From a bacterium (GTDB lineage Bacteria > Desulfobacterota > Desulfocorpusculales > Desulfocorpusculum): DNA of 64,000 nt. The stretch covers positions 128,989 through 192,988 of the forward strand of contig JBBFLE010000001.1 of the NCBI GenBank assembly GCA_037481695.1. The letters run 5' to 3'. How positions within the stretch are numbered: position 1 is the stretch's first letter; the number at the start of each line of letters is the position of its first letter. The translations under genes and the position numbers were made by a program. Below the pieces are notes generated by a model. The model had not been told where the DNA came from, did not search any database, and saw nothing but the letters and a program-made list of their open reading frames with translations. Below, piece after piece: positions 20,480 through 39,190 of this stretch.

Positions 20480-20810
20480 CGCAGCTTACCTCCTGGATAT
20501 GCTGATCGCGGCCCGCGATGCCCTAGAGTTCAGCCGCGACCTCACCTGGGAGCAATTTCAAGAGAGTTCCCTGCATCAGCATGCGATTGCCAAAGCCCTG
20601 GAAAATATCGGCGAAGCCGCGCGCAAAATCTCGGCAGAGACTCGCGCTGCACATCCCGAGATCCCGTGGGCGCAGGTCATCGCCCTGCGAAACCGGATTG
20701 CCCATGACTACTTCCACCTGAACCTGGCCGGAATATGGGACATCATCCAGCGCGAAGTTCCTGAGTTGATCGCCTTGATTGAACCGCTTGTGCCGTCGGA
20801 GGAGCCATGA
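20469..20810 (+). CDS. HepT-like HEPN toxin (DUF86)
   Basis: RNRIAHDY R-x4-HxY HEPN motif; 113 aa; 11-nt overlap with MNT. Confidence 0.8.
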
Positions 20811-20899
20811 GAACCACTCCCAATACCAAACGCCGGCTATCCCCACCTGCTCAGGCTAGCAACAACGCCAGTGAGGAATACACCCCCGGCTGGAACACC

Positions 20900-21220
20900 G
20901 GCTCGCTCTCTTGGCCTGGCTCAACAGCCAGCTCGGCTACTCAAGCAACCGCGAACTGCTGGAGGACATGAAGCAGGCCGACGAGGGCTTTGACGCTTCC
21001 GGGCGCAGTCACATCTACCATCGGCTCCTCTCGCGCGGCAGCAAGGTGCGAATCCCCCGAGGACCTGGCGCGTTACGATGACAACATCCGCGCGCACCTG
21101 GCGGCCATCAACGCCCGCCGTAGCCAGCCCATCACCCTGCTCTACTTCCAGTACCTGGCCTTCCTCTACACCGAAATCGTCCTTGCACCTAGATTTCATC
21201 TTTCACCGCCACCCAGCTGA
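20900..21220 (+). pseudogene. Frameshifted fragment of an unidentified gene (two adjacent frames: ...WLNSQLGYSSNRELLEDMKQADEGFDASGRSHIYHRLL... / ...DDNIRAHLAAINARRSQPITLLYFQYLAFLYTEIVL)
   Basis: Short ORFs without start or RBS lying between HepT and the DUF499 gene; family not recognised. Confidence 0.25.
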
Positions 21221-24510: not shown

Positions 24511-24511
24511 G

Positions 24512-24889
24512 TCAATCCCCCTCTCGATCCGGTTGATATTCCCGAATGCGGTTGCGCTCGACGATCCAGAGCTTGCCTTTGATATCGTTCTGAGCAAGCC
24601 CTTCAATCAACGTACGGCAGCACGCCCAGAGGTCTTGGTCGGTCGGCTTGTGCGGAAGGCGTAAGACGGCGATGCCGCTGTATTCCCAAGGAGGGAAAAG
24701 GAAGGGATTGCTGAAGTCCAGGTCGAGCGTGACTAGACACCTACCCTCTGCCCGACAGGCGGTGATGAGCACGCGATCGCTGGCGGAGCAGAGGTTTTGC
24801 TGCGGAACGGTGGCGACGTCATGGCCCGCGGATCGGAACAGGCGTGCACCCCGTTCACCCAAGTTCTCATCGAGCTTGAGCTTCATCAT
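24512..24889 (-). CDS. DUF5615 (PIN-like, Mut7-C fold) putative toxin
   Basis: MMKLKLDENLGERGARLFRSAGHDVATV...DLDFS pattern typical of DUF5615; start at internal ATG 24889/24886. Confidence 0.65.
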   Translation of the reverse strand: MMKLKLDENLGERGARLFRSAGHDVATVPQQNLCSASDRVLITACRAEGRCLVTLDLDFSNPFLFPPWEYSGIAVLRLPHKPTDQDLWACCRTLIEGLAQNDIKGKLWIVERNRIREYQPDREGD

Positions 24890-25131
24890 TGATTCGCCGC
24901 CGGCAGCTCGACATATCGTTCGCGCGACATTTCGGCCCCATACGCAATGCAAGCTCGGATGTCGTCGTCGTCGATACCAGGGTAATTCTCGCGGATCTGA
25001 TCGAACGTCCAGCCGCTGGCCAGCAAATCCAAGATCAGCGACACCCAGATTCGGTGTCCCCGAATACAGGGCTTGCCGAAGCAAATATTCGGATCGATGG
25101 AGATGCGCTTCAACAGGTCTTCTCGGTTCAT
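24886..25131 (-). CDS. DUF433 putative antitoxin
   Basis: FGKPCIRGHRIWVSLILDLLASGWTFDQIRENYPGIDDDDIRACIAYGAE matches the DUF433 consensus; 4-nt overlaps on both sides. Confidence 0.7.
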   Translation of the reverse strand: MNREDLLKRISIDPNICFGKPCIRGHRIWVSLILDLLASGWTFDQIRENYPGIDDDDIRACIAYGAEMSRERYVELPAANQ

Positions 25132-28100
25132 GGACGATCCTCCTTGTTTGACGGAGTATCGGTGTCGTCGCCAAAAGTCAAGCCCAGCTGGCGATTTTCC
25201 TTCACCGCGCCCCTGGCCTGGACGTGGTTGCTCAGGGATTCGAGCAGGGAGCGCTCTTCGCTTCCGTGGGGCGAAAGCTCGATGAGCGACTGGAGGAGCC
25301 GCTTGAAAAGTTCTTGCCGGCGCAGTCCGTTGCCGTCGAGGTACTCGTCCACCTTGGCAAGATCGCCGGCCTTCCAGAGATGCATCAGGCGGTGCACGCG
25401 GTCGATGAGAGGGATCGGTTTCCCGGCCGGCGCCTCATAGCCAAGTGAACGTCTCTTACGCTGCGCCCACGTCTTGAGCTTCACCTTGCTCCCGGATTCC
25501 TCGAAAGTAGTAGCCGCGTCCTCGCCGCTTTCTTCCTCTTCTATCTCATCATCATCTTCAAGCGACGAGACGTCGCTTCTACTATAGCCGATGATGTCCC
25601 ACGTGTCGGCCAGCTCCTTGTCGGAGAGGCCACACGAGATCGCGTAGAGGATGCACGCGCCCGCCGGGGCTTCCTCGAGGCCGAAGTCGTGACGATGCAG
25701 AAGGTAGTAGGCGGTTGGATCGTCGAGAGTAGACGCGTCGTCTCGACGCGTATCTTCATGTTCGCTTCCACTCAGCACTCGGCCGACCACGAACTCCACG
25801 ACCATCCGCCGCACGTGGGCGAGGAACTCGCTCACCGTCATCAGGCCCGGCTCATTGGCCTTCTTGACCACGGGGTGCTTGCTGTAGGCCTCGAGCGCCG
25901 GACCCGTTGCCGCCCACACGAAGTCCGGCCCACGGATGCCCGCGTCCCAGAATTCGCGGAGCTTGGCGCGGATATTCCGACGCATCTCTTCCAGAACCTG
26001 GTTGTCCCAGCCGGGCTTCGAAAGTAGAAGCGGCGTCCCGCCGCTTTCATCCACGCGACGAGACGTCGCGTCTACGAACGTAGAAGCGGCGTCCTCGCCG
26101 CTTGAGATTACGCGATGAGACGTCGCGTCTACTCGCTTCTTGCAGACCAGCCAAACGGAGGAGGCGAGAGCAGAAGACGCCTTTGCACGCATCCTGGTGT
26201 TCATCTCCGTCTGGATGGGCCAGCTGCCGTCGACGACGAAACCCGATCGAACGAGTGCCGACACGAGGGCTTCCCATGCATCAGGCTGCTTGTTGGCGAA
26301 AACAACAACCATCTTGCCATCCGGTTTCAGTGCGTTCCTGCACGCCTGAAACGCACGCGCCATTCCCTCCTCATAAACGGCCTTCGACTTGGCCTTGTCG
26401 CCTCCGTGACGACTTGCGTCATCGATGAGTTCCCCGTCGTTTCTCTCGTGATTCCACTTGGGCGAAAGGGGGTCTCGAAATGCCCTGTCCAGGTCCAGAG
26501 AAAGACCGTTCAGCGAGCGCTTCAGCCATAGATAGAAAAAATCCATCAGATCCGAGTACGGAATCGCATCGTAGTAGGGCGGGTCCGTCACCACGGCGTC
26601 GTACTGGCCGGAACTGATCTCGAGGGCAGATCGGTTCTCCGCCACGGGCGCCTCGGCATCCGTCGAAGCGAGTAAAGCATGGTCGATACAGAGCGACACC
26701 CAGTTGAGCTGGGCGCAATACGCCGCGCCGACGACATTGATGACTGCCACCTCGGCGAAGTCCCACGTAATCGGCAAAGCGAAGCGAGTAAAGGTATTCC
26801 CGACAAACTCGCCGGAAATAACCCATCGGCAAGTCGTTGAATTGTAGTCTGCAACCTTGTCGTTGAGTATGGCTAGGTAACCTATGACAGCCTCACGCCA
26901 TTCCGACGGATAGCCAAACCGCAACATCTCAGTTGCCGCCTCCCTCGTCCACTTCACGAACGTCCCCAGCGCCAGAAGCTGGCGGGGGGTGAAGAGATCC
27001 CTCCATCGCGTGAAGCCGTAGCCGTCTACGGAAAAAGCTCGGCTTGCTCCGATTCCTCCCCTGGGAGTCGGCTCCACGGGCAACCCGAACGGAATCTGCG
27101 CGAAGAGGTCGGGCAATGCCTTCTCTGCCTGACCCGCTTTCTCTATTTCCTCTCGCTCCGGCAGCCGGTACTCCTTGCCGTCTTGTCCTTCCACGACCAC
27201 GGCGGTCATGACCGAGCCGAGACGCCCGGCCCGACCCTCCAGTCGAATGTCCTCCATCGTCATGATCGTGCCGCAGCAGGGGCACTTGGCGCCAGAGCGC
27301 GACATCGTTCCCGCCCCGAGGCGCTTGTCGTGCTCGCGGCGCTGCGCTGCGTTCCCGCCTTTTACGGGAACGTTTGTCTCGATTCCAAAGACCACAGTAG
27401 ACGCGACGTCCCGTCGCGTTGGGGCGGCACTGTCTTCCGGCTTGCCCTTGGGATTATTCCGAATGTATTGCCTGACTCGTTCCATTTGAGCAGGGCTTCT
27501 AATAATGTGGTCAAAGGATTCTTTCTGCCATACGGTTCCGCTGCGCCCCAGTTTCCTGTTGATCTCGTGCGCCGTGTAGGACTTCCATGAATGAAGGATC
27601 TCGGACAGTTCATGCCCAGCCAGGGGGGTCACCAAAGCATGGACATGGTTGGGCATCACCACATGTTCATCGAGAAGGTAGCGTTCTCCATCAAAGTGCC
27701 GCAGAGCACTTTCGACAAGTGCCTTGATTTCTGGTTTGGCAAGGATGCATTCGCCGTAACCGGCGTCTAGCCATTCCTGAAAACGTTGGGGAAAAAGTTG
27801 ATAATACTCGCGACGTGTCTTTTCGTCGTGAGGTTCAGGATGTTTCTCCTGCCACGCCTTGCGTTCCTCTTCCCATTGCAGCAACTTCTCTTGAGGCATG
27901 GAATCTGCTAGACGGAAGGTCACGAAATAGGTTGCACCGTCCTGGCGCCAATGGGGAAGGTTGCCGGAAAGGTTGCCAATGGGGGCTTCAGGATCGAAGT
28001 AATGCAGAAGCGCCGTCTCGACGCTTCTCGCACGCGGCGAGGACGCCGCGTCTACTATTACTTGCATCGTGAGGAGCACGCGCTTTTTTTCCTTCTTGCA

Positions 28101-29138
28101 CAGCCAGCGGGTCTTGAGGAGCGGGATCGTCGCGCGGCAGTTCTTGCAGGTCACCGTGCGCGCCCAGAGGTAGGCGACCGTCGGCTTCGCCACCCATCGG
28201 GGATTGCGTTTGTCTGCCAGGTACTCCGCGCTGAACTGGGCATTCAGCCGGTCAATGTCCGGCTTCCCATCTTCCTTGAGGGGAACCAGGCGCGTGGGCT
28301 GCTTCTCGTAAGGTAGACGCGACGTCCCGTCGCATAGAAAGCGGCGGGACGCCACTTCTACCGGCTCGAACTCGGCGTAGGTCGGGTAGAACCTGGCAAG
28401 TTCCCGTCGGGCGCGGTCGAGAACCCACTGGCCCCACGCTCGGACGTGCCAGGCGAGGTCTGCTTCCAAAGGAGACGCGACGTCCCGTTGCATGGCCTGT
28501 TTAAAAAGCGACAAGACGTCGCTTCTACACCGCGGGTGCGCCTTGTAAAAGGCCTTCATGAACTCCTCGTTCTCGAGGATGAAGTCCGGCAGAGGATGGG
28601 TCTTCCCGGCCAGCTTCTGCGGATATTCGAGCGTGCATTTGAGGATGAACCAGGCGACCGGGTTGATGTCCACGGCCGTCACCTCGCACCCGAGGCGCAT
28701 GGCCTCCAGCGGGATCGCACCGCCGCCCGCGAAGGGGTCCAGCACTTTGGGTGGGCGCCCTCCGTAGGCCTTGCGGATCTCCTGCCGGAACCACTCCAGC
28801 AGCTCCTTGTTCTCGGTCTCCCGGCCCCAGTGCAGAATGCCTCCCTCGGTGGCTTCCTTCTCACGCTCGACGACCCGCCCGCCGGGCATCTTCTTGCGCT
28901 CGATCTTTTTCACTACTTTGCCACCGATTTTCTCGCAGAGCTTCTGGCGTGCTTCGGGCGTTCCGGGATCAGGCAGGAGCGTGGCGATGAGGGCGGCCCG
29001 GCACGCGGCCAGCGGCCGCCGCGCTGGCCAGATGTGGAGCGTCGAGATGTGCCCATGCCGCACGTTCTTCTCGTGGACGGAGTCCAGAGAAGCCTGCTTC
29101 AGCGGGAAGGCATGCTCGATCAGGCGAGATTTGTCCAT
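25128..29138 (-). CDS. DUF1156-family N6-adenine DNA methyltransferase (1336 aa) carrying an in-frame Y1/RAYT transposase domain and multiple in-frame REP-derived segments
   Basis: Canonical DUF1156 N-terminus (EHAFPLKQASL...HIWPARRPLAACRAAL); FxGxG motif (VLDPFAGGGAIP); Zn-ribbon KCPCCGT; catalytic DPPYYD motif; AGGA RBS 6 nt before ATG 29138. Confidence 0.85.
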   Translation of the reverse strand: MDKSRLIEHAFPLKQASLDSVHEKNVRHGHISTLHIWPARRPLAACRAALIATLLPDPGTPEARQKLCEKIGGKVVKKIERKKMPGGRVVEREKEATEGGILHWGRETENKELLEWFRQEIRKAYGGRPPKVLDPFAGGGAIPLEAMRLGCEVTAVDINPVAWFILKCTLEYPQKLAGKTHPLPDFILENEEFMKAFYKAHPRCRSDVLSLFKQAMQRDVASPLEADLAWHVRAWGQWVLDRARRELARFYPTYAEFEPVEVASRRFLCDGTSRLPYEKQPTRLVPLKEDGKPDIDRLNAQFSAEYLADKRNPRWVAKPTVAYLWARTVTCKNCRATIPLLKTRWLCKKEKKRVLLTMQVIVDAASSPRARSVETALLHYFDPEAPIGNLSGNLPHWRQDGATYFVTFRLADSMPQEKLLQWEEERKAWQEKHPEPHDEKTRREYYQLFPQRFQEWLDAGYGECILAKPEIKALVESALRHFDGERYLLDEHVVMPNHVHALVTPLAGHELSEILHSWKSYTAHEINRKLGRSGTVWQKESFDHIIRSPAQMERVRQYIRNNPKGKPEDSAAPTRRDVASTVVFGIETNVPVKGGNAAQRREHDKRLGAGTMSRSGAKCPCCGTIMTMEDIRLEGRAGRLGSVMTAVVVEGQDGKEYRLPEREEIEKAGQAEKALPDLFAQIPFGLPVEPTPRGGIGASRAFSVDGYGFTRWRDLFTPRQLLALGTFVKWTREAATEMLRFGYPSEWREAVIGYLAILNDKVADYNSTTCRWVISGEFVGNTFTRFALPITWDFAEVAVINVVGAAYCAQLNWVSLCIDHALLASTDAEAPVAENRSALEISSGQYDAVVTDPPYYDAIPYSDLMDFFYLWLKRSLNGLSLDLDRAFRDPLSPKWNHERNDGELIDDASRHGGDKAKSKAVYEEGMARAFQACRNALKPDGKMVVVFANKQPDAWEALVSALVRSGFVVDGSWPIQTEMNTRMRAKASSALASSVWLVCKKRVDATSHRVISSGEDAASTFVDATSRRVDESGGTPLLLSKPGWDNQVLEEMRRNIRAKLREFWDAGIRGPDFVWAATGPALEAYSKHPVVKKANEPGLMTVSEFLAHVRRMVVEFVVGRVLSGSEHEDTRRDDASTLDDPTAYYLLHRHDFGLEEAPAGACILYAISCGLSDKELADTWDIIGYSRSDVSSLEDDDEIEEEESGEDAATTFEESGSKVKLKTWAQRKRRSLGYEAPAGKPIPLIDRVHRLMHLWKAGDLAKVDEYLDGNGLRRQELFKRLLQSLIELSPHGSEERSLLESLSNHVQARGAVKENRQLGLTFGDDTDTPSNKEDRP
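25509..25583. repeat. REP doublet (REPIN-like) with expanded acidic spacer, in frame in the methyltransferase (encodes SRSDVSSLEDDDEIEEEESGEDAATTF)
   Basis: GTAGTAGCCGCGtccTCGCCGCT ... AGCGACGagaCGTCGCTTCTAC. Confidence 0.6.
25729..25751. repeat. Solo REP hairpin GTAG-ACGCGTCG-tct-CGACGCGT (encodes TRRDDAST)
   Basis: Perfect 8-bp stem preceded by GTAG. Confidence 0.65.
26024..26132. repeat. Two tandem REP doublets (REPINs, 52-53 bp each, period 56 bp): GTAGAAGCGGCG-tcc-CGCCGCTT/spacer/ACGCGA(C/T)G-aga-CGTCGCGTCTAC; in frame, encodes VDATSHRVISSGEDAASTFVDATSRRVDESGG
   Basis: Read directly; the two REPs in each doublet are inverted (GTAG ... CTAC). Confidence 0.75.
27397..27419. repeat. REP hairpin GTAG-ACGCGACG-tcc-CGTCGCGT immediately 3' of the RAYT domain (encodes TRRDVAST)
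   Basis: Read directly; orientation inverted relative to the REP on the other side of the RAYT. Confidence 0.7.
27425..27965 (-). mobile_element. IS200-like Y1 transposase / REP-associated tyrosine transposase (RAYT) domain, embedded in frame in the methyltransferase
   Basis: LPHWRQDGATYFVTFRL..., HuH motif MPNHVHALV, ...GTVWQKESFDHIIRS..., RQYIRNNP (catalytic Tyr region); no own start codon; flanked by inverted REPs at 28005-28055 and 27397-27419. Confidence 0.75.
28005..28055. repeat. Degenerate REP plus REP (CGCGGCG-agga-CGCCGCG-TCTAC) immediately 5' of the RAYT domain (encodes IVDAASSPRARSVETALL)
   Basis: Read directly. Confidence 0.6.
28313..28362. repeat. REP doublet GTAGACGCGACG-tcc-CGTCGCA/tagaa/AGCGGCG-gga-CGCCACTTCTAC in the N-terminal half of the methyltransferase
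   Basis: Read directly. Confidence 0.6.
28471..28528. repeat. Degenerate REP doublet (GGAGACGCGACG-tcc-CGTTGCA ... AGCGAC-aag-ACGTCGCTTCTAC) in the N-terminal half of the methyltransferase
   Basis: Read directly. Confidence 0.5.
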
Positions 29139-29162
29139 GCATCATCCTCGCGTGCCTACTTG

Positions 29163-29663
29163 TTAGGGTCTGCCGTCCACTTCAGACATCCTGATGGCAT
29201 CGTGTCCTATAGGGAACACATATGCTGCCGCGTGCCAATCTCTATTGGGATCGCCGCCCATCAGCAGAAGTACCGGTTCGGGACACCTCATCGCATTATT
29301 GGTGGCAAATGACTTCATTTGTTCATGGTCTATTTCGCTAGGGATAGGGGCGGCCAAAGGATGGTAATGCCACTCGCCAAGGTAATACTGTTTCCGACGC
29401 CAGAGACGGTTCAAGAACGCCTGGAGACCTCGCACGCCGCGGTTGAAAAATACTCTGCCTCGTCTGGAATCTGCCGGAGGTCCAGACACATCGGTTACGA
29501 TAGCCCAATCGTGCTTGTCAGTATAGTAACCAACGAGAATTCCCCCTGTCTCCATATGCCTTGATGCCTTACAGAATGCGATTATCTTGTCCATTGTCAT
29601 TCCTTGCACAGACAGTCCAAACCGCGCATCAGGCGTTCTAAACTCAAGGGTTCTCATGTTCAT
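29163..29663 (-). CDS. cap3: CBASS Cap3-like JAB/JAMM isopeptidase
   Basis: E...HYHPLAAPIPSEID = HxH-x7-S-x2-D JAMM motif; 166 aa; directly downstream of the E1/E2 gene. Confidence 0.75.
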   Translation of the reverse strand: MNMRTLEFRTPDARFGLSVQGMTMDKIIAFCKASRHMETGGILVGYYTDKHDWAIVTDVSGPPADSRRGRVFFNRGVRGLQAFLNRLWRRKQYYLGEWHYHPLAAPIPSEIDHEQMKSFATNNAMRCPEPVLLLMGGDPNRDWHAAAYVFPIGHDAIRMSEVDGRP

Positions 29664-29665
29664 TA

Positions 29666-31555
29666 CTATTGGACCAATTTGATTCCCGGTGGGAACTCAT
29701 CCTTCTGCTCCTGTTCAAACACGCACAATCGAGGAGAACGTGGAGGATTAGTCATCCATGAATCAATGCATTTCACGGCGATGGAACTCAACAACCAGAT
29801 ATCATCCGAGCGAGCGGGAAAGACGGGGTGCCAGCATCCGAGCCCTTCGGGGGGCAACTCGAATCCCTTGTGCTCTTTCAACTCTTTGTCGAGCCACGGG
29901 GTCAGCATGGCCGAGAAATCATGATGGGGGAACCTCTCGCCACATGCCCCGAATAAAAATAACCGTCGGGCTTGAAGACCTGTCGAGATACTCACAAACA
30001 GTTTGTTGCCCTCCCAAGGAAAGGTGCTCAATCGGAAAGCAGCACGGTCATCACCAGTACAGTCGATGACGATAGTGCACTCCGCCATTTTCCGTTGCTC
30101 AACCTCAGTGGTGTTGTGCACGTATCGTCTGACCCCCTCGGCGGTAACGTGAGGAGAGATGCTGTTCAATCGGGCCGCCAACGACTCTGCTTTTGGTGTC
30201 TGTATCTCTTGGATGGAGAGCGTGTGACGACACAAGTTGCCCACTTCAAGGATGTCTCCGTCTACCACAACTATTCTCTGACAGCCTTCGCGAACGAGTA
30301 TCTCAGCCACCGAGGATCCTATAGCCCCAGCGCCAACTATCAGAACCTTGGCACCCGTTAGTGAAGATGATGCTCGGCCTCTTGTCCGTATCTGTTGCTC
30401 CGACCAGTTCCTTGAGATGATCCAGTCAATGCTGCTGCTATCCGAAAGAACGGTACGGGCGTCGTTCATTGCGAAGTTTCCCTCCTTGGGGCGAAAGCCT
30501 TTCACCTTGCCATGTGTAAGCACAGGCAGCTGGAGTGCCTGCCAGTGGTACATCGCGGGTTCGCCCCCAATGGTAGTTGGTATGGGGAAGCCGACAAGTA
30601 GAATGTGCCGTTTGCCGTCACGAAAGTCTCGAGCAAGGTCGAAGAACAGAGGATTGAAGTCAACGCCCTGTTCCTTCATTGCTGCTCGCAGTTCGCCGAA
30701 GGTTGCGGGGGCTTGCCAAGGGTGGATCACCGGTATACGAGGTAGGCGGATCCACATCGCGGAGAGTTTGCGCGCAGTCCCATGCCTTAACAAGGCTCCG
30801 TACTCCACTTCCCGAATGGTTTTTCCTCGTGCATTTGAGAAGGTGGTGACGGCATACCACGCGTTGACGCCATCAGGTTGAACCACGGTGGCAACCCCAC
30901 ATACCTCGACCGTCTCTTCCTGCCAGAACCGAAAGGAGTCCTCGTCTTCGATGAAGCCTAGTGTAGTGTGTGATCGTCGCGGAAAGTCTGGCAATTCGAA
31001 CGGTTCGCCCACCTCGGCTACTCGACCTGCTGCCGCAGCCTCTAACCACTCCTTAGCTCGCATTACGTGCCACCGCAACCGCTCTTCAGGCGAGGTGGGT
31101 TCGATATCGTAGGCCCGCCGCCCCGCGTAGCGCAGCGATGTCCGGACGCATATCTTCCCCTCTCGCCACGGGACATCAGGATTCCCCTCAGCGTTGTGTG
31201 ACTGATGGGGAAATGTGTGTTTGATCCCCCCGTCTTTGGCAGGATACAGTTCAATATCGCCCCATGGATAGTCGTCATCTGCAACGATGAACCACACCGA
31301 CTTGGCAGGAATGAGACCGGCAGGCTTTACCGTCAAACGACATCGCAGCGCCCATTTCTTGAATAGCTCATTCCACACCCAGTCTTCCAACAGTTCGCAG
31401 AAAGGGAGTCCATCCAGCGCTCGTCGTGCTCGCAACAAACTATCTGGTGGTTGGAATTTCATATTGTCAAGCAAAGCGTCCGCCTCCGATGATGGAGACA
31501 TTCTTCCTTGGCGTATACCCACCCGGCTTGTCGGGCGACTCACCGTTACCGTCAT
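29666..31555 (-). CDS. cap2: CBASS Cap2-like E2/E1 fusion (ubiquitin-conjugation-like)
   Basis: C-terminal ThiF/E1 Rossmann KVLIVGAGAIGSSVAEIL...VVVDGDILEVGNLCRH; N-terminal E2-like half; start ambiguous (ATG 31555, 31501 or 31462; the ORF runs to TTG 31591), overlapping the CD-NTase 3' end. Confidence 0.7.
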   Translation of the reverse strand: MTVTVSRPTSRVGIRQGRMSPSSEADALLDNMKFQPPDSLLRARRALDGLPFCELLEDWVWNELFKKWALRCRLTVKPAGLIPAKSVWFIVADDDYPWGDIELYPAKDGGIKHTFPHQSHNAEGNPDVPWREGKICVRTSLRYAGRRAYDIEPTSPEERLRWHVMRAKEWLEAAAAGRVAEVGEPFELPDFPRRSHTTLGFIEDEDSFRFWQEETVEVCGVATVVQPDGVNAWYAVTTFSNARGKTIREVEYGALLRHGTARKLSAMWIRLPRIPVIHPWQAPATFGELRAAMKEQGVDFNPLFFDLARDFRDGKRHILLVGFPIPTTIGGEPAMYHWQALQLPVLTHGKVKGFRPKEGNFAMNDARTVLSDSSSIDWIISRNWSEQQIRTRGRASSSLTGAKVLIVGAGAIGSSVAEILVREGCQRIVVVDGDILEVGNLCRHTLSIQEIQTPKAESLAARLNSISPHVTAEGVRRYVHNTTEVEQRKMAECTIVIDCTGDDRAAFRLSTFPWEGNKLFVSISTGLQARRLFLFGACGERFPHHDFSAMLTPWLDKELKEHKGFELPPEGLGCWHPVFPARSDDIWLLSSIAVKCIDSWMTNPPRSPRLCVFEQEQKDEFPPGIKLVQ

Positions 31556-32603
31556 CCTTCTTTGCCGGTGGGTCCGGGAACCGGTCACCAAAGAGCTGTC
31601 GCCACAGAATCACGCTCTCGTGCAGGTCTTCTTCGTTGTATGCTCGGCGGGCTAACTCGGCTGCCTCCGTGATGTGCTCGTGGAAGGCGACGAAGTCATC
31701 GGGAGACACTCGCCCTAATACATTGTGCTCTGGAACACCATGGTCAGGAACCCTTGGTGTTCGTTTCTGCTCAACATCTGTGCGGTATACGTCGCGAATG
31801 CCTTCGAGGGCTGAGACCACACCAGCGGCGACGGATTGAATACCATCCGCGCAGTTTATGCAGCAAAGGTGCTCTAGGGGATAGCTCTTGGGGTACTTTG
31901 GCTCCCGGCGTTGCGTGGTTCGCCACCATTTCAGGCACTTCACAACGTCGAGGTAGTAGCCATTGCATGCTGCATTCTTTCTTTGCGTTGCTTCAATCTG
32001 AGCCAATGGATGTGTCTTGTGCCATTCCTGTGCTTCTCGGTCAGGAATCCAGAGGGGCTCGTTTCGCCATTGTTCATCCCCCGCCTTCTCCAATATCGCG
32101 CCTAGCGATTTGCCAGACCGCCACGACAGGCTGAGCCTCCAGTCACGAGCTTCTTCCAGTGTTTGGTCGGTTGAGACGCTCGCAGACTTGACGAGCTGTT
32201 TCAGCGCCTCGCTAGGTGCGGATGTCGGCACGAGGTCCAGTTGGACATAAGATAGTTCAATGCCCCACGAGCGGCCTTGCGGCTTGTACTTGCCCTTGTA
32301 GTGCTTCTCCAAGAAGGGCCTGAAGCGTTCCAAGGCCTCACGAGGTGTGATCTTGTTTCGGTCGAGATTCGTTACGATGATAATGTCGACATCGGATTTC
32401 CTCCGGTCTTCGAACGGTCTGATCGCCGTGGAGCGCCTATAGCTGCCCTGAAGGAAGGTCGCCACAACGATGTCCTTCAAATCTTCGTCCTTGAGGAGCC
32501 GGTCCCTGAGTGTGCTGTGCCCGTTCTTACAATCCTGGACTTGGCTCTCCGTGATCCTGATGTTCCTCAAGAAATCGATGAAGTACGATGGTACATTACT
32601 CAT
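31467..32603 (-). CDS. CD-NTase (cGAS/DncV-like nucleotidyltransferase) of a type II CBASS
   Basis: GSYRRSTAIRPFEDRRKSDVDIIIV (GS...[DE]h[DE] NTase active-site motif); 378 aa; C-terminus ...IIGGGRFA; ATGA start/stop overlap with the effector gene. Confidence 0.75.
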   Translation of the reverse strand: MSNVPSYFIDFLRNIRITESQVQDCKNGHSTLRDRLLKDEDLKDIVVATFLQGSYRRSTAIRPFEDRRKSDVDIIIVTNLDRNKITPREALERFRPFLEKHYKGKYKPQGRSWGIELSYVQLDLVPTSAPSEALKQLVKSASVSTDQTLEEARDWRLSLSWRSGKSLGAILEKAGDEQWRNEPLWIPDREAQEWHKTHPLAQIEATQRKNAACNGYYLDVVKCLKWWRTTQRREPKYPKSYPLEHLCCINCADGIQSVAAGVVSALEGIRDVYRTDVEQKRTPRVPDHGVPEHNVLGRVSPDDFVAFHEHITEAAELARRAYNEEDLHESVILWRQLFGDRFPDPPAKKDDGNGESPDKPGGYTPRKNVSIIGGGRFA

Positions 32604-34171
32604 TCCATGTCCCCCTTATGTTTTCCACGCGTTCCAAAACTCGAGCCGCAACTAATAGGGACGCTGATAGACTGATAATATGCAGCACCGCCTGCATCGA
32701 GATCATGCTCGTACAGCACCAGCTTGCCGAGAACGTGCGCCAACCGCCCAAGCAGGAACATTATGCCGTTGGGGGCCGCGAAGAACACGTGCAATACGCC
32801 GCCTTGTCCGCCGCACAACTCCCTGACGGTGGCAACGAGACACTCGGCCAAGAGATGGGCATGAGTTCCATCCTTAACCGATGAGGGGCCTGCAGACGGG
32901 AGGAGGAAGTGAACGATGCTCCCGGCTGTCTTGACGTTCAGTCTCACGTACTTCAAGACGTCCTTCTCGATGTTATGTGTGGCGCTGATTGCAAGGACCG
33001 TATCCGTGGTGTTCGCCGGTTCCAGTTTGATAACGCTCACATCCCATTTCGGGTAGTGTTTCTCGATTTCGGGCGAAACGTGTGCTTTTCTCCATATATG
33101 CCGCCCTGCAAGGCTGTCCTGCACGGGCACGATGTCCACGCCAGATTTTGGGTTCAGCGCCCATCCCGCAATGAATGCGATGCTACCGTGCGTCTGGAGG
33201 CGGATATGGAATGAGCGCGAAGGCTTCACATTCACATCGAGAAAGCGAATCACCGCAGGGGCTATGATCTCATTCCACGTATTGGGTACTCTTGGAAACC
33301 GCCCGTTGAAATGGCGAAGCAGGCAGAGTGTCGCGTCGGTTTCGTCTTCAAGGTTCTCGGCATACCGCCAGAAGCTGCGGATGCCGATCCTTGTGGCATC
33401 AGGCTCTTCAATCGCCCGCCCCGCCCAGAGAGCACATTCGCGGGAGAGTTTTTCAAGGGAATCTCTTGTAAGAACTCTGTCTCCTCTTTCAATTAGTTTT
33501 CGCCCAAGATCATCGTACGGGTTTATGGGGTTGCCCGGCTGGACCGGAACGAGCCCTACCAAACGGAGGCGAAGATTTAGGTCTTCGCCCAATTTTTCCA
33601 ATGTCGGCCCCTGATGCACGCGAACAAGGCGCAGCAAACGCTGCAGTTCCTCGTCTGACCGGAGGCCTAAATGTCTCTTCCACGCCTCACGCACTTTCCC
33701 CATCCTCGACTTAGGGCCGCCTCGAGACAACACATCCCATCGCAGGCTTCCGTCGGTCAGGCTGTGAAATGCGCCCATCTCGTTGTCGGGATGGACCTGC
33801 CACGGTGAAAAGATGTTGAACCGACAGTTACAGCCTTTTGATGCGCATTTGCGTTGCGCGTTCAAAAGTCGTTGCAGAATGGATACTGAGTTGGCGTTCA
33901 CAAACGAGGGATCCATCATGTTTTGCCATGTGAAGGCCCCGTTGCTTTTAACGTGAAACTTGACTTGGTAGAAATCTGCGTGAATGGACTCACCCGCATC
34001 GGAATAGCCGCTATAACGGACCACCACGTCGTCCAGAGATTTTGCCTCATCGCTCTCAATCTCCACGCTTACAACTTTCGTCTTGTCCTCGAGCAGACGG
34101 CATGCCTGCAACCAGAAGAAACGTATCTGATAGTCGTCGCCCTGAAGCCGTGCTGCAACTGCTCTAGCCAT
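32600..34171 (-). CDS. cap4: Cap4-like CBASS effector: N-terminal DUF4297/REase-fold nuclease plus C-terminal SAVED domain
   Basis: Start at MARAVAARLQGDDYQIRFFW (GGAGG upstream; 2-nt gap after the helicase stop); D...QVK nuclease motif; C-terminus ...LHVFFAAPNGIMFLLGRL typical of SAVED. Confidence 0.6.
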   Translation of the reverse strand: MARAVAARLQGDDYQIRFFWLQACRLLEDKTKVVSVEIESDEAKSLDDVVVRYSGYSDAGESIHADFYQVKFHVKSNGAFTWQNMMDPSFVNANSVSILQRLLNAQRKCASKGCNCRFNIFSPWQVHPDNEMGAFHSLTDGSLRWDVLSRGGPKSRMGKVREAWKRHLGLRSDEELQRLLRLVRVHQGPTLEKLGEDLNLRLRLVGLVPVQPGNPINPYDDLGRKLIERGDRVLTRDSLEKLSRECALWAGRAIEEPDATRIGIRSFWRYAENLEDETDATLCLLRHFNGRFPRVPNTWNEIIAPAVIRFLDVNVKPSRSFHIRLQTHGSIAFIAGWALNPKSGVDIVPVQDSLAGRHIWRKAHVSPEIEKHYPKWDVSVIKLEPANTTDTVLAISATHNIEKDVLKYVRLNVKTAGSIVHFLLPSAGPSSVKDGTHAHLLAECLVATVRELCGGQGGVLHVFFAAPNGIMFLLGRLAHVLGKLVLYEHDLDAGGAAYYQSISVPISCGSSFGTRGKHKGDME

Positions 34172-34173
34172 AT

Positions 34174-37100
34174 TCAGCTCTCCTCCGCCTCCATGATCTG
34201 CCTTGCGCTGATCAGAACGCTCCCCTTGGCCCGGGCGAGCAGGCTCCCGAAGGGGTCCTGGACGCGCACGAGGCGTGGGTTCGAGGTGGCGCAGTCGTAG
34301 ACTACGTAGAGCCAGTAGTCCTGCCGCATGTTGCAGGCCCTGGCCCATTCATTGGCGGACACCTCGATGTCGCCGGTGCCGGCCCGGCCCTTGACCTCGA
34401 TGGCGCGTTTCTCGAAAGTAGAAGGGGCGTCCTCGCCGCTTGAAGTTACGCGACGAGACGTCGCGTCTACAGAGCGGATGGAAAGCAGGTCAAAGCCAGG
34501 GTTCTCCGGCAACCCTGCCGCACGCGCCAGCTCCGGAGTATGCACGTCCAGAACCTTCGCTCCTGCGGCTTCCTCGAAGGCCCGGGCGATTCTCATGGCG
34601 GCCAATTCCACGTTGATGTCGTGCTCCTTGATGTCTCTCGGATCAGAGGATGGCACAACCAGGGCGTGCGCGACGAAGGTAATTGGGCCAGGCGCGACCA
34701 GCTCGGGTTCTCGACGCAGCACCGCCAGGGCGTTCGATCTGCGTTGGGCAAGCTGTCTCTGCTGGCGCTTTACTTCCTCCAGCGCATCCATGGCTTTTCG
34801 GTTTCCCTTGCGAGCCTTTTCCGCGTGCCTGGTGCGGGCGGCCGCAAGTTCGGCCTCCCGGAAGTCGAAGCCGCGGCGAAGGAAGCTCTCACGCTCCGGC
34901 AGCGTGTCCAACAACCTCTTTCTGCGCTCCAATGCCATTTGGCGCGCCACTTGTTCCAGGAGAAACGCTTTCGCCTGTTCCTTCATCTTGCCGGCCTCAA
35001 CCGCCAATCGCTGCGCAGCAGGCGGGAGGCCATGACCACCTTTCAAGAGGAGGAGGTGTTCGACCGGGCAGAGCGCCACGTCGGCGTCATCGTACTGCCT
35101 CAGCCCCACCAGCCGGCATTCGAGCGTCTCTTCCTCGGTGAGTTCGGTCAGTTCCGCGTCGGGTTTTCGGATCACCGACAAGAGCGCCATGTGGAAGAGA
35201 TACGGCCTATCGGTCATGGGGTCGACGAAGACGGCGCCCCTTTGGCCTGCGTCCGCGAGGCGTTCGGAAATCAGGGCGCGGAATCGCTCGAAGACGGGCT
35301 CGCCTGGATGAAGCCAGATCACCTCTTTCGGATCTGTAGGTCTGGACACTGTCAGTTTCTCGCGGGACTTCTCCGGATAGAACTCCAGCGCGGACAAGAG
35401 CGGGTCCATCGCCCCCGTTCGCTTGGGGCGCAGGGAGAACACGCCTCCAGGATCCCCCTCGATTTCCAGACCCAAGAGCGGCGCCGCCTGCTCGATGTAC
35501 TGGCGGACGTAGCCCGGCAACAACCGGAAATACACCTCCCGCTCGAGGTTCTCTCGAAGCCGCGGGAGTTGCCTGGCGACATCTCCGCCCGAGCCGTAAA
35601 GGGACCGTTCGCGGGCGGCCAGGGCCTCCAATTGCTCCTTGGTCAGGCGGCCATCCAGTTCACGCGCCACCTCGTCGGGGTCTTCGATGACCGCAAGCTC
35701 CATGTACTTCCTGATGGAAACCCCCTGGAATATCCGCCCGATGCAATCGAAGACCTTGTCAGAGTTTAGCTCCTTCCGAATTTTCTCCATCTTGTCGAGA
35801 AGCGTCTTGAGCACCCGGCCTTCCCGGGTGGACGGCGCCACAAGGTTCAGGATGATGACCGGATCGTGCTTTTGCAGGTAGCGATGGATGCGCCCCATCC
35901 GCTGTTCGAGGCGCGCCGGGTTCCACGGCACGTCGTAGTTGATCATGATCCAGCAGAACTGGAGGTTGATCCCCTCGCCCGCCGCGTCCGTGCATACCAG
36001 AAACCGTGCGCCGCCCTCATGAGACGCCTTGCGGAAGCGCTCCACTTCTTCTTCACGCTGGGTAAAGTGCATGCCGCCGTGGATCTGGGCCACCTGCCCC
36101 GTGTAGCCCATCCCGATGAGGCGCTTGACCAAGAAGTCCAGCGTGTCCCGGTGCTCCGTGAACACGATGAACTTCTCGTCACCGAATTTAGGGTCGGTCA
36201 GGATTTCCCTAAGCTTCTCGAACTTGGACTCCTGGCCTAGGTCGTAGACCTGCCTCGCCAACGCGAGCAACTTTTGGACCTGCTCCCGTTCGGCCAACAG
36301 ATCCGCCAGCGAAGCGGCGACCACCCCCTGGAGCAACTTGTCCTCGGCAAGCTCGTTTTCCTCGCGACCTTCCGCCGGGCTTTCATCATCAGCGGTCTTG
36401 TTATCGAGGACGTCGTCTGTCTCATGGATGCGTTGCTGCAGGGTCACGAGCTGCTCGACGTTCAGTTCGCCGTCCTGCACGGCCTCAATGAGTCCTTCGA
36501 GCTTTTCAATCCGGCGCTCGAAGGATCGCAGGAGCGCCCAAGTTGAGCTGGCCAGCCTCCGCTGGAACACGCCCATGGCCAGCCGCGCTGCCTCCCGGTT
36601 CAGGAGCTTCGCCTTATTGTAGACGAACCGAAGGTAGTCTGTGGTCTCGTCGTATAGGGTCTGTTCGCTGATCGGGCCCTGGGATAGTTCATAGCCGAGC
36701 GTGTCTGAGATCCGCTTCGGGAAAAGAGGCCTGCCGTCGAGGTAGACCATCTCCTCCTTGGTGCGGCGAATGAAATGGCTCGCGCGGTGTTCCGCCGGGA
36801 ACTCGTTGAACGCTTCCGGAGTGGACAGCACGTCGGGTTCAAGGAGCCGCCACAGCGCGTAGTAGGGGTAGTCCTTGCCCATGTGGGGCGTGGCGGTGAG
36901 CAAGAGGAGATGATGGGCGCACCAGCCCAGACTCCATTGATCATCGAGATCGCGCACTCCCGCCAGGGCCTCCGCCAAGCAGTAGCGGTCTGTCTTGCGC
37001 ACCCGCATGTCGTTGCCGCGATCTGCGGACAGTTTGTGTGCCTCGTCAAAGACGACGAGATCGTAGGGGATGACATCGGGTTCCTTGAGGCGGGCAAAGA

Positions 37101-37791
37101 CCCTGGGGCTGGAGAGCGTGTCCAAGCTGACGATGATCCGGTCGCTGTCATCGCCTTTGAACGGGTTGTCGTTACGGGCGTCTGATCCGCTCACGATTCG
37201 GAAGACCAGGTTGAAAAGCGTCGCCAGTTCATGCCGCCAGTTTCCGACTAGCCCCGCCGGGGTGACGATCAGGACTCGACGCAGGAGCCGTCGGGAGAGC
37301 ATCTCGCGGAGGTAGAGCCCGGTCATGATCGTCTTCCCCGCGCCGGCATCGTCGGCCAAGAGGAAGCGGAGCCGGGCTTGCTTGAGCATGTGCTCGTAGA
37401 CGGCGATGCGCTGGTGAGGCAGCGGATCGATGCAGGAGATCTCGGTGGCAAAGGCGGGATTCATGAGGTGGCCGAAGGAAAGCCGTTCACCCTCGGCCAG
37501 CACCTTCACAATCTCGGGCGGGGCGGTGAAGTCCAGTATCGGTGGTGCGCCCCCGTAGGAGTGTTGCTCCGGCTCGGCGACCTTGCTTCGAGTGTCCAGT
37601 TCCGCCTCCAGCTGTCGTAGGCGGGCCCAGCAGATTTTCGATGGCTTGACCTTGCCGTTCTCCCAACGATTTACGGTAGGAAATGATACGCCGACCGCCT
37701 CAGCGAGCGCGACCTGGGTCAGTCCTAAGCGTGCCCGCAAGGCTTTTATCCTGCGAGGGTAATCGTCTCCTGGCGTTGAAGTCATAGCCAT
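34174..37791 (-). CDS. XRE-family HTH fused to SNF2/COG0553 helicase with C-terminal DUF3883-like domain
   Basis: LGLTQVALAEAVGVSFPTVNRWENG HTH; DDAGAGKT (motif I), VVFDEAHKL (II), LLLTATP (III), QRMGRIHRYLQ (VI); C-terminal EVKGRAGTGDIEVSANEW...YWLYVV; start at MAMTST. Confidence 0.8.
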   Translation of the reverse strand: MAMTSTPGDDYPRRIKALRARLGLTQVALAEAVGVSFPTVNRWENGKVKPSKICWARLRQLEAELDTRSKVAEPEQHSYGGAPPILDFTAPPEIVKVLAEGERLSFGHLMNPAFATEISCIDPLPHQRIAVYEHMLKQARLRFLLADDAGAGKTIMTGLYLREMLSRRLLRRVLIVTPAGLVGNWRHELATLFNLVFRIVSGSDARNDNPFKGDDSDRIIVSLDTLSSPRVFARLKEPDVIPYDLVVFDEAHKLSADRGNDMRVRKTDRYCLAEALAGVRDLDDQWSLGWCAHHLLLLTATPHMGKDYPYYALWRLLEPDVLSTPEAFNEFPAEHRASHFIRRTKEEMVYLDGRPLFPKRISDTLGYELSQGPISEQTLYDETTDYLRFVYNKAKLLNREAARLAMGVFQRRLASSTWALLRSFERRIEKLEGLIEAVQDGELNVEQLVTLQQRIHETDDVLDNKTADDESPAEGREENELAEDKLLQGVVAASLADLLAEREQVQKLLALARQVYDLGQESKFEKLREILTDPKFGDEKFIVFTEHRDTLDFLVKRLIGMGYTGQVAQIHGGMHFTQREEEVERFRKASHEGGARFLVCTDAAGEGINLQFCWIMINYDVPWNPARLEQRMGRIHRYLQKHDPVIILNLVAPSTREGRVLKTLLDKMEKIRKELNSDKVFDCIGRIFQGVSIRKYMELAVIEDPDEVARELDGRLTKEQLEALAARERSLYGSGGDVARQLPRLRENLEREVYFRLLPGYVRQYIEQAAPLLGLEIEGDPGGVFSLRPKRTGAMDPLLSALEFYPEKSREKLTVSRPTDPKEVIWLHPGEPVFERFRALISERLADAGQRGAVFVDPMTDRPYLFHMALLSVIRKPDAELTELTEEETLECRLVGLRQYDDADVALCPVEHLLLLKGGHGLPPAAQRLAVEAGKMKEQAKAFLLEQVARQMALERRKRLLDTLPERESFLRRGFDFREAELAAARTRHAEKARKGNRKAMDALEEVKRQQRQLAQRRSNALAVLRREPELVAPGPITFVAHALVVPSSDPRDIKEHDINVELAAMRIARAFEEAAGAKVLDVHTPELARAAGLPENPGFDLLSIRSVDATSRRVTSSGEDAPSTFEKRAIEVKGRAGTGDIEVSANEWARACNMRQDYWLYVVYDCATSNPRLVRVQDPFGSLLARAKGSVLISARQIMEAEES
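34418..34470. repeat. REP doublet (REPIN) in frame in the helicase, between the helicase core and the DUF3883-like domain (encodes SVDATSRRVTSSGEDAPSTF)
   Basis: GTAGAAGGGGCG-tcct-CGCCGCTT/gaagtt/ACGCGACG-aga-CGTCGCGTCTAC; same family as the copies in the methyltransferase. Confidence 0.75.
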
Positions 37792-37823
37792 GGTATTCTC
37801 ATCGCCGAGTGACAATATAAAAA

Positions 37824-37852
37824 ATTATATCATATGCAATAGTGAGTGTCAA
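37824..37852 (-). promoter_or_regulatory. Consensus sigma70 promoter TTGACA-N17-TATAAT driving the helicase/CBASS/MTase/ATPase gene string
   Basis: Minus-strand reading TTGACActcactattgcatatgaTATAAT, about 30 nt upstream of the helicase start; AT-rich with ATATAA/TTATAT inverted repeat. Confidence 0.55.
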
Positions 37853-38149
37853 ACTATCACACGATGGGAGGCATTTGCGCTGTTAAGGTTTTGGGAGGCC
37901 TGGTCAATGCGCGGAGAGGTTTGCACGGCGGGTTGGGGCCGGCAGATGTCACAGCTGGAGGCCCAAAAGCTTTTGCTACAGGCTCACTTTGGCGCTCTGA
38001 GCATTTTCACTCCTGGTTTCAAAAACACCACCCCCCGCTGCTTCTCGATCTGCCTCCCACCTTGCAACAACTACGCTGCCTTGCGTGACTTGGGGCTCCA
38101 AACCAAAGAACGCATTTGCTCCTTACGATTGCTCTCGACCACCCCTACC

Positions 38150-38526
38150 GCTGTCAGCTTTCATGGAAATGACCCACTTTGAGGGATGGTTTTTCACGGA
38201 TATGAGCCACGTGGTTTTCATCTGATTGACCCACCCGTGGGGAGTGGAGAAGTAGTGGGTGGCATGCCCATGGCACATGGGAGAGCCCTTTGTGTCCATA
38301 CCTAAAGCCCCACTTGTTGCTGCTAAATGACTTGGCTTTGAAGGACTTTAGCCTCCAGCAAGCCCAGGACATCTATGATCTCATTGATGAACGAAGCCGA
38401 GCAGGCTCCGTGATGGTGGCCTCCCACCGAGCCCCCCAGGACTGGTACCCGTTTTTTCCCAACCCGGTATTGGCCGAGGGGGTCCTACATCGCGAAAACC
38501 CCCTGGGTCATATGCGTGAAAAGTGA
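38150..38526 (+). pseudogene. istB: Remnant of an IS21-family istB helper ATPase gene (C-terminal part intact, upstream part decayed/frameshifted; no istA)
   Basis: PHLLLLNDLALKDFSLQQAQDIYDLIDERSRAGSVMVASHRAPQDWYPFFPNPVLAEGVLHR aligns to the IstB C-terminal block (LLILDE...LF.LI..RYE.GS.I.TSN....W...F.D...A.A.LDRL.H); upstream LIDPPVGSGE resembles a degraded Walker A. Confidence 0.55.
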
Positions 38527-38542
38527 AAGCTGTATGGCGCTC

Positions 38543-39190
38543 TTAGGGCTTCTCTGGCCTTTGTTGCTTCACGGATAAGGCTCTTTGCTGCTTCTGGTAG
38601 GAATACAATTCCGAATATGAGACAATCGCTCGGCCCCTATATTGCTCATACTCTTTGATGAATGTTTGAGTGTCATCGTATGGACCGGCAATGTATCCCG
38701 GGCGCTTGGAATCAGCAAAGAAATACTTCTTGCCATCTCGTCTGAAGCTGACAAGCCAGTGCAACCGAAACGTACTGCCATTGATCTGAATGGGATCGAA
38801 CTCAATCATCAGATACTTGGGGTCTGTAGTGGGATCAATTCGTCTGAGGGTCTCAACTGCAAACCGTGACAGGTCAATGCAAGCACCAGCCTTACTCTCG
38901 AAGAACTCGGGTGGACTGAAGACTGGAGGCGTATGATTCTTCGCTTTCTGGGTCTCAGAGAGCTTCATTGCTCGTGTCCTGTCATAAGAGAAGTTGGCAG
39001 CAATCCACCCATTGATATCTTCCGGTGTCTTCCACGTCTGTAAAGCCTTCTCATAAGAGTCAGCCACCTTGAACTGCACAGTTGAATCGCGTGGATACTC
39101 CGGCTCATCCGAGGAAAGTGTTGCAGCATGAGAAGCGCTGGCACCACCAGGTAGAATGCAAAAAACTAAGAACATGATCACCTTGTACAT
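38543..39190 (-). CDS. Secreted hypothetical protein, possibly a transglutaminase-like cysteine peptidase
   Basis: Signal peptide MYKVIMFLVFCILPGGASA; GACIDLSRFAVETLRR...HWLV...FAD (Cys-His-Asp arrangement); lower-GC DNA. Confidence 0.35.
   Translation of the reverse strand: MYKVIMFLVFCILPGGASASHAATLSSDEPEYPRDSTVQFKVADSYEKALQTWKTPEDINGWIAANFSYDRTRAMKLSETQKAKNHTPPVFSPPEFFESKAGACIDLSRFAVETLRRIDPTTDPKYLMIEFDPIQINGSTFRLHWLVSFRRDGKKYFFADSKRPGYIAGPYDDTQTFIKEYEQYRGRAIVSYSELYSYQKQQRALSVKQQRPEKP

Follow-up and report, generated by a model that had tools for sequence, protein, structure and literature searches.

Four genes at 29163-34171 in the stretch of DNA analysed here (hereafter the window: 64 kb of contig JBBFLE010000001.1, from a genome assigned to the Desulfobacterota; positions count from its first letter) are predicted to encode a type II CBASS (cyclic-oligonucleotide-based antiphage signalling system) that lies within a second defence operon, an Hma system. 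We consider it probable that this cassette is exchangeable cargo in a slot of the Hma operon, and that its freedom from the repetitive extragenic palindromes (REPs) found in both flanking genes is the default state, as these REPs and their transposase (RAYT, REP-associated tyrosine transposase) live almost only in hmaB. An earlier note, made from the letters of the window, had described the cassette as devoid of REPs and REPINs (REP doublets forming hairpins) whilst the genes on either side carry copies. It proposed either insertion of the cassette into a pre-existing REP-colonised operon or purifying selection against REPs in the CBASS genes. The contrast with the two flanking genes is real, but the rest of the window outside the Hma island is equally REP-free.

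The CBASS cassette as probable cargo of an Hma operon

The genes of the island lie on the same strand in the order hmaA, CBASS, hmaB, a DUF433/DUF5615 pair and hmaC (Table 1). With an HmaA helicase that has a nuclease-like C-terminus, a DUF1156 HmaB with intact motifs and a same-strand DUF499 HmaC, the flanks of the cassette are, as judged from their domains, one operon of the Hma (type-1 BREX-related) kind; the equivalence and renaming of these systems is stated in PMC12839542. The junctions are tight: that between hmaA and cap4 reads TGA-AT-ATG, so that the cap4 ATG falls 2 nt past the hmaA stop codon, and hmaB starts 24 nt past the cap3 stop codon. The TTGACA-17-TATAAT site upstream of hmaA is the sole full sigma-70 consensus match in 20500-38600 (~18 kb) and is likely the single promoter of the whole operon, and a search for terminators within the operon returned none that was convincing. 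Because of the tight junctions, the single consensus promoter and the lack of a convincing internal terminator, we place the CBASS inside the Hma system, and the cassette and the hma genes are probably transcribed together from the predicted promoter upstream of hmaA. The earlier note was correct in seeing a pre-existing operon around the cassette, although it did not recognise that operon as an Hma system.

For comparison, genomes of many phyla provided 80 hmaB loci, which were annotated by tblastn. The shortest gap between hmaA and hmaB is 8 nt and the longest 7.7 kb; between hmaB and hmaC the extremes are -5 nt and 6.2 kb. Cargo found in these gaps includes HEC-01A ABC ATPases, Schlafen-like AlbA_2/HATPase_c_4 proteins, DUF1016 nucleases, HEC-09 NYN, AAA_14/DUF4143 proteins, GajB-like helicases, a zeta-toxin-like kinase and a short pAgo. 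In most relatives the scaffold is the same and the position taken by the CBASS in the window is filled by other cargo. A full type II CBASS occupies the hmaA-hmaB slot in three loci besides the window, namely L055 (a Verrucomicrobiota metagenome-assembled genome, MAG), L003 (a metagenome contig) and L042 (a Binatia MAG, in which the CBASS is distant and accompanied by an extra gene). The layout between the hmaA stop and the cap4 start in L003 and L055 is as in the window, with the cap4 ATG 2-4 nt past the stop; the CBASS-in-Hma junction is found in REP-free relatives too. Moreover, free-standing relatives of the cassette (L005 and L007) sit in unrelated contexts. They resemble the cassette of the window as much as the embedded ones do: over the concatenated cassette proteins they are 71.6% and 66.8% identical to the window, whilst the embedded cassettes of L003 and L055 are 68.3% and 65.6% identical. 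A division of embedded and free-standing CBASS into separate groups was rejected, since pairwise identities of 65-75% do not split them. L002 was rejected as a second context for the exact CD-NTase (the CBASS cyclase), as it comes from the same strain.

The cassette has a GC content of 0.544, and of 0.606 at third codon positions (GC3), against 0.616 and 0.760 in the flanking hma genes. The somewhat lower GC that the earlier note had suspected is therefore true against these flanks, and the comparison of GC and codon usage that it called for finds the two compositions not to be identical. However, the background of 33 open reading frames (ORFs) outside the island has a GC of 0.567 +/- 0.025 and a GC3 of 0.653 +/- 0.050, which puts the hma genes about +2 standard deviations (SD) from the local background and the cassette within ~1 SD of it. 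The local compositional outliers are the hma genes, not the cassette. The offset between cassette and hma genes recurs in L003, and in L055 and L042 the GC of the cassette is below that of the rest of the locus. The free-standing CBASS relatives have a GC of 0.56-0.57 in loci of GC 0.47-0.52. The cassette keeps its own composition wherever it is located and therefore behaves as expected of exchanged cargo. Given this composition, and since close relatives occur both free-standing and in other Hma slots, the cassette is read here as foreign, exchangeable cargo in the variable hmaA-hmaB slot.

Nesting within Hma systems is a known pattern, to which CBASS is added here as a new cargo. According to Payne et al. 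(bioRxiv 10.1101/2024.01.29.577857), 62.7% of the 1,485 Hma systems that they surveyed have genes embedded in them, and many of these genes belong to defence systems. Their search admitted three intervening genes at most, and CBASS is mentioned neither in their text nor in PMC12839542. The window has the same core of helicase-nuclease, DUF1156 methylase and DUF499 ATPase as the systems in these two papers and the same architecture, variously termed 'embedded' or 'backup effector', of same-strand defence genes between the core genes. It differs in that the cargo is a four-gene type II CBASS and that both slots are filled, the second with the DUF433/DUF5615 pair. In such an arrangement the CBASS would serve as a second, abortive-infection layer behind the restriction-like first layer provided by Hma.

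An alternative is that CBASS and Hma are co-adapted parts of one composite system and are inherited as a unit. The stop-to-start layout of 2-4 nt is the same in the window, L003 and L055 despite a cassette protein identity of 65-68%, the CBASS and hma genes share a strand and a predicted promoter, and the divergence per gene between the window and L003 is alike for hma and CBASS genes, all of which would suit such a unit. However, CBASS is present in only ~3% of the Hma loci examined, the embedded cassettes do not group apart from the free-standing ones, the scaffold of the window is nearer to non-CBASS scaffolds than to that of L003 or L055, and the GC offset persists. We therefore hold joint inheritance to be unlikely.

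REP distribution and the order of events

The consensus of the REP, GTAGACGCGACGTCYCGTCGCGT, has a GTAG tag and, after it, an 8-bp stem with a loop of 3-4 nt. The window holds 16 copies, including 7 inverted pairs; 14 are in hmaB (25507-28528) and the other two in hmaA (34418-34470). In a weight-matrix scan these copies score 29-37 bits against a background maximum of ~11 bits. No copy was found in the cassette, in hmaC or in the ~47 kb of the window outside the island. Hairpin remnants or degenerate REPs within the cassette, which according to the earlier note would tell against its claim, do not rise above chance: the best match to the weight matrix in the cassette scores 7.1 bits, compared with 6.7 +/- 3.2 in Markov shuffles, 39% of which reach that score.

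Across 12 Hma loci that bear the RAYT, hmaB carries 57 copies in 46 kb (1.24 per kb), hmaA 6 in 34 kb and hmaC 0 in 29 kb. Cargo in the first slot has 0 in 23 kb (0 in 18 kb without the CBASS cassette), cargo in the second slot 1 in 12 kb, and sequence outside the island 0 in 98 kb. The density outside hmaB is thus about 0.04 per kb, and the same pattern of distribution is seen in L122, L123 and L125. At the non-hmaB rate, by our own arithmetic, 0.2-0.4 copies are expected in the 5 kb of the cassette and the probability of finding none is 0.7-0.84; the empty cassette seems significant only if the rate of hmaB is borrowed. Because so few copies are expected, the absence of REPs from the cassette says nothing about either timing or selection. 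We propose that the REP family and its RAYT would reside almost only inside hmaB, which would make an empty cassette the default expectation. Within hmaB only in-frame, stop-free insertions at permissive loops would survive, presumably since a protective methylase is costly to lose.

The idea that the REP family is exclusive to Hma was rejected. The exact 23-mer of the REP was found in only 33 metagenome stretches, 17 of them inside Hma loci and 16 without an hma gene, and the copies in the latter are ordinary solitary REPs. Pfam searches of the ORFs that carry these non-Hma REPs matched only cyclopropane-fatty-acid synthase and 3-keto-disaccharide hydrolase.

The relative age of cassette and REPs can be approached through shared insertion sites. 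In hmaB, the window has the RAYT site as well as REP sites B, E and F in common with L009 and/or L012, and L013 and others have the RAYT site too. Site A and the REPIN in hmaA are lineage-specific, though the hmaA site is common to L098. Among ~15 RAYT-bearing Hma loci no CBASS was found besides that of the window; in the others the first slot is taken up by AAA_14/DUF4143 or by AlbA_2/HATPase_c_4, the latter sometimes accompanied by a ParA-like gene. Moreover, as far as either edge of the slot, the hmaA and hmaB of the window belong to the REP-lineage type. Because of the shared RAYT and REP sites, the other cargo in the closest hmaB::RAYT relatives and the REP-lineage slot edges, and not because of the absence of REPs, the CBASS most likely replaced an earlier cargo in a scaffold whose hmaB was already colonised by the REPs and the RAYT. 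The first proposal of the earlier note, a cassette put into a REP-colonised operon, consequently survives as to cargo status and is probably right as to order on this comparative evidence; the absence of REPs, to which it appealed, has no value as evidence for it.

It could still be argued that the cassette is REP-free since it arrived after the spread of REPs in the operon was largely over. The insertion sites are common to L009, L012 and L013 and hence old, the window alone among the RAYT-bearing Hma loci has a CBASS, and the composition of the cassette is unlike that of the hma genes, as late arrival would have it. Yet hmaC and most of hmaA match hmaB in age, and have 0 and 6 copies against its 57, and other cargo is REP-free too, including the AlbA_2 genes of L012 and L122 despite their long residence. 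Together with the fraction of a copy expected at non-hmaB rates, and with REP activity that continued in this lineage, these observations make timing a rather improbable reason for the empty cassette.

Selection, the second proposal of the earlier note, would require that REPs do insert into CBASS genes and are then removed for inactivating or deregulating a toxic abortive-infection system. This is plausible in principle, as CBASS proteins are compact with few long linkers, and the REP sites of hmaB fall in variable, gap-rich linkers. However, insertion pressure outside hmaB is too low to call for it, the cassette holds no degenerate remnant, and unrelated cargo and hmaC are equally REP-free. 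We found no evidence for such selection and regard it as highly improbable. Lastly, although the source is a MAG, a chimeric join in its assembly can be dismissed for practical purposes, as two independent assemblies from different runs have the same arrangement at 100% and 99.98% identity and the same nesting recurs in the unrelated assemblies L003/L004, L055 and L042.

The second sample of the same strain, L002, differs from the window by only two single-base homopolymer indels, A5 to A4 in cap4 (window 33593) and C3 to C4 in hmaB (window 28964). Each would frameshift its gene; they could reflect true inactivating variants or mistakes in assembly.

Some observations weigh against exchangeable cargo with a REP-free state by default. 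REP activity went on in this lineage, as seen in site A, which is occupied in the window only, and in the hmaA REPIN, which lies 244 nt from the cassette; recency or selection may therefore have a mild part in the empty cassette. The REP counts for the source organism rest on the 64-kb window, taken from a contig of 641 kb. The neighbour-joining tree of the scaffolds is star-like, groups the window with RAYT-bearing loci at 35% bootstrap and places the RAYT-bearing L108/L111 elsewhere; we used it as a consistency check only, and the order of events rests mainly on the shared insertion sites. Moreover, sliding-window identity and segment-wise protein and nucleotide comparison detected no recombination breakpoint near the slot edges. 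A switch toward L003/L055 at the 3′ end of hmaA or the 5′ end of hmaB was likewise not seen when CBASS- and RAYT-bearing scaffolds were compared.

Genes of the cassette and of the surrounding island

The cassette consists of four closely packed, intact ORFs (Table 1). It has the active site of a CD-NTase (cGAS/DncV-like nucleotidyltransferase), a Cap2 E1/E2 fusion with both cysteines, the JAMM motif of Cap3 and a sensor-effector, and these features mark it as an intact type II CBASS with a clade-D cyclase and a Cap4 effector, like the CdnD/Cap2/Cap3/Cap4 system of Enterobacter cloacae; it is complete and apparently functional. Matches in Pfam, PADLOC and PDB bear out the four protein assignments of the earlier note (Cap4-like nuclease-SAVED, CD-NTase, Cap2 and Cap3), and the GS...DVD, E1 Rossmann fold, HxH-x7-S-x2-D and D...QVK motifs it listed are all found in the translations.

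The Cap4-like effector matches Cap4 of E. cloacae (PDB 7YIB) with E=8e-73. Its SAVED domain spans aa 307-503 (Pfam E=1.5e-24) and its nuclease motif reads DDVVV...YQVKFH, so that a cyclic-oligonucleotide sensor domain is joined to a nuclease domain in one protein. The active-site motifs of the CD-NTase read QGSYRR...SDVDIIIV, and its best PDB match is the E. cloacae cyclic AMP-AMP-GMP synthase (7LJL, 7D48, 7TO3), with E=1e-105 over residues 7-361. Cap2, for which 31474 is a possible alternative start, matches the Cap2 chain of 7TO3 with E=9e-101 and has cysteine at both positions aligned to Ala109 and Ala548 of that chain; positions 109 and 548 of E. cloacae Cap2 are those of its catalytic residues. 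The Rossmann motif GAGAIGS is present in the translations of the cassette. The metal-binding motif of Cap3, HYHPLAAPIPSEID, follows the pattern HxH-x7-S-x2-D.

By analogy with homologues, infection would lead the CdnD-like cyclase to make a cyclic oligonucleotide, probably a cyclic trinucleotide. Cap2 would prime the cyclase through conjugation of the C-terminus of the latter, and Cap3 would undo the conjugation. The signal would then bind the SAVED domain of Cap4, whose nuclease would degrade DNA and so abort the infection. The window has the same four protein families as the E. cloacae type II CBASS, with catalytic motifs kept and the same nuclease-SAVED architecture of the effector. It differs in that the effector is the first gene of the cassette and that the cassette is not alone, being set inside another defence operon through junctions of 2 nt and 24 nt; moreover, the host is an uncultured bacterium, for which the signalling nucleotide is a prediction from homologues.

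Table 1. Features of the Hma island and its CBASS cassette, with positions in the window.
Feature	Position	Strand	Evidence and remarks
Promoter-like site TTGACA-17-TATAAT	37824-37852	minus	TG upstream (extended -10); directly upstream of hmaA; 12/12 hexamer matches
hmaA	34174-37791	minus	N-terminal HTH, SNF2-type helicase, C-terminal NOV_C/DUF3883 nuclease-like domain; PADLOC HmaA E=1e-152
REPIN in 3′ part of hmaA	34418-34470		two inverted REP copies, in frame; encodes ...DATSRRVTSSGEDAPSTF...; site also occupied in L098
cap4-like effector	32600-34171	minus	N-terminal D...QxK endonuclease, C-terminal SAVED sensor; PADLOC endonuclease effector E=2e-154
CD-NTase, CdnD-like (clade D)	31467-32603	minus	PADLOC cyclase E=1e-151; Pfam SMODS E=1e-27
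cap2, E2-E1 fusion	29666-31462	minus	PADLOC E1-E2 E=6e-208; Pfam ThiF aa 365-471
cap3, JAB/JAMM isopeptidase	29163-29663	minus	PADLOC JAB E=2e-49; Prok-JAB E=3e-11
hmaB	25128-29138	minus	DUF1156 N6-adenine methyltransferase, 1336 aa; PADLOC HmaB E=6e-110 in two stretches; DUF1156 E=1e-17
REPIN, hmaB site A	28471-28528		aa ~203-225; occupied in window only
REPIN, hmaB site B	28313-28361		aa ~261-275; common to L009, L012; other REP family there in L011; RAYT there in L049
In-frame RAYT insert (Y1 HUH transposase)	27396-28064	minus	core 27414-27986; REPs at 28004-28055 and 27397-27419; not in REP-free homologues (gap in L003)
Two adjacent REPINs, hmaB site D	26024-26132		aa ~1003-1036; also occupied in L010, L012
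Single REP, hmaB site E	25729-25751		aa ~1125-1137; common to L012
REPIN, hmaB site F	25507-25582		aa ~1186-1213; acidic linker; common to L009, L012
Second cargo slot (hmaB-hmaC)	24512-25131	minus	DUF433 (24886-25131) and DUF5615 PIN-like (24512-24889), toxin-antitoxin-like pair
hmaC	21196-24510	minus	DUF499 AAA+ ATPase; PADLOC HmaC E=3e-72; DUF499 E=3e-21; no REP

The start of hmaA is the ATG at 37791 or 37785; the gene call gives 1203 aa, with Pfam matches to HTH_3, SNF2-rel_dom, Helicase_C and NOV_C. The methylase motifs DPFAGGG and DPPY of HmaB are intact and its ORF stays open through every insert. The DUF433/DUF5615 pair is found in the same slot in L010 and L125, and L003 has an AlbA_2/HATPase_c_4 gene there. 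Elsewhere in the window, a repeat finder reported a 100-nt inverted repeat, 74% complementary, whose arms (1431-1530 and 53502-53601) are 52 kb apart.

The RAYT and REPs within hmaB

The 1336 aa of HmaB compare with ~1080 aa in REP-free homologues, and the excess is made up of the in-frame RAYT (aa 359-581) and of REP-coded peptides at six further sites. The Y1_Tnp domain is matched at aa 488-562 of HmaB (E=1e-7), proteins related to the RAYT bear the name RayT in their sources, and the HUH (NHVH) and tyrosine (QYIRNNP; QYIxNNP) motifs are conserved in 18 sequences. With dN/dS at 0.05-0.15 and synonymous sites mostly saturated, the RAYT core is by this measure under purifying selection, its catalytic motifs intact. 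The chimeric ORF of hmaB and RAYT is intact in L009, L010, L012, L013 and L049, and of the top 120 HmaB protein clusters, 21 join DUF1156 with Y1_Tnp, at lengths of 1267-1419 aa. The same REP family is found inside hmaB of MAGs labelled Deltaproteobacteria, Syntrophaceae, Gemmatimonas and Nitrospiraceae, and a second GTAG REP family occupies hmaB in two other MAGs.

In alignments the REP sites of hmaB fall in variable, gap-rich linkers. Site B has been struck by two REP families, and in L049 the RAYT itself lies at site B in place of site C. A single preferred reading frame for the REP-encoded peptides was rejected, as the translations use several stop-free frames; therefore the constraint would be an open frame and not a particular peptide. 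We estimate the chance of eight in-frame events at ~(1/3)^8, and the pattern of in-frame inserts points to selection for an intact methylase.

Inserts are seen in other hmaB genes too. That of L041 (10001-14212, a Latescibacterota MAG) has another REP family and a 96-aa remnant of a RAYT, its frame closes after 490 aa, and it may be a decaying version of the chimera. In L103 (4584-7742) hmaB contains three REP copies with no detectable RAYT; therefore REPs can persist in the gene without a resident transposase. P0274 (1211 aa) and L023 (hmaB match of 3.6 kb) stand for HmaB homologues with in-frame insertions of another sort, one example being a GIY-YIG nuclease domain (PF01541 with DUF1156). 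On these sequences, hmaB may tolerate several kinds of inserted mobile-element domains.

Residues ~640-830 of HmaB (window ~26650-27220) are hypervariable, with 31-50% identity to most relatives and 63-80% to L014 and L015. This segment is probably the target-recognition domain, and its pattern of identity indicates mosaic exchange between alleles. Stand-alone RAYTs of this subfamily are very numerous; some of them bear the name of a type I restriction-modification subunit or are fused to one. One source gives the label 'type I restriction enzyme R subunit' to P0239, P0124, P0141, P0160 and others, which are close stand-alone relatives of the RAYT, and in P0239 a single ORF joins the C-terminus of HsdS and a RAYT with REP-coded peptides. 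These cases are a hint that the subfamily is often located in or beside restriction-modification genes.

REPIN-RAYT systems are usually described as extragenic, genome-wide and vertically inherited. The set in the window resembles them in its multi-copy GTAG-tagged palindromes with GC-rich hairpins, mostly in inverted pairs, and in a REP-flanked Y1 HUH transposase that has the HUH and tyrosine motifs and appears to be under purifying selection. Unlike the usual systems, with extragenic repeats and a free-standing RAYT, the RAYT and all 16 copies lie in frame inside hmaB or hmaA, nearly all of them in one gene, and the set travels with hmaB across MAGs labelled as different phyla. Intragenic GTAG REPs and Rickettsia palindromic elements have been described (PMC3733652), and these too are short palindromic repeats in frame in open genes, adding 20-30 residues. 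The window differs from them in having seven sites in one gene together with the transposase itself, and in that the same permissive sites are struck by two REP families. A RAYT resident with its REPs in a defence methylase gene was not found described in the literature searched.

We tentatively suggest that hmaB is a safe harbour for a resident, in-frame REPIN-RAYT replicator, kept open by selection on the methylase and spread horizontally between phyla with the Hma island; this is a possibility that we put below even chances. In a stronger version, the REP/RAYT set may help to exchange the hypervariable target-recognition segment or neighbouring cargo, including this CBASS.

In summary, the cargo that passes between Hma scaffolds includes whole CBASS cassettes of four genes, with gaps of just 2-4 nt from stop to start, and surveys limited to three embedded genes would miss such cargo. 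In itself the CBASS finding is of small weight, given a standard CdnD/Cap4 system, a published pattern of nesting and a trivial reason for the REP-free state. The in-frame arrangement of RAYT and REPs within hmaB is seen again in no fewer than 21 protein clusters and across MAGs from several phyla. If it is confirmed, this arrangement would be a counter-example to the extragenic, vertically inherited view of such systems, and a tractable case for how these elements choose, and survive in, their insertion sites.

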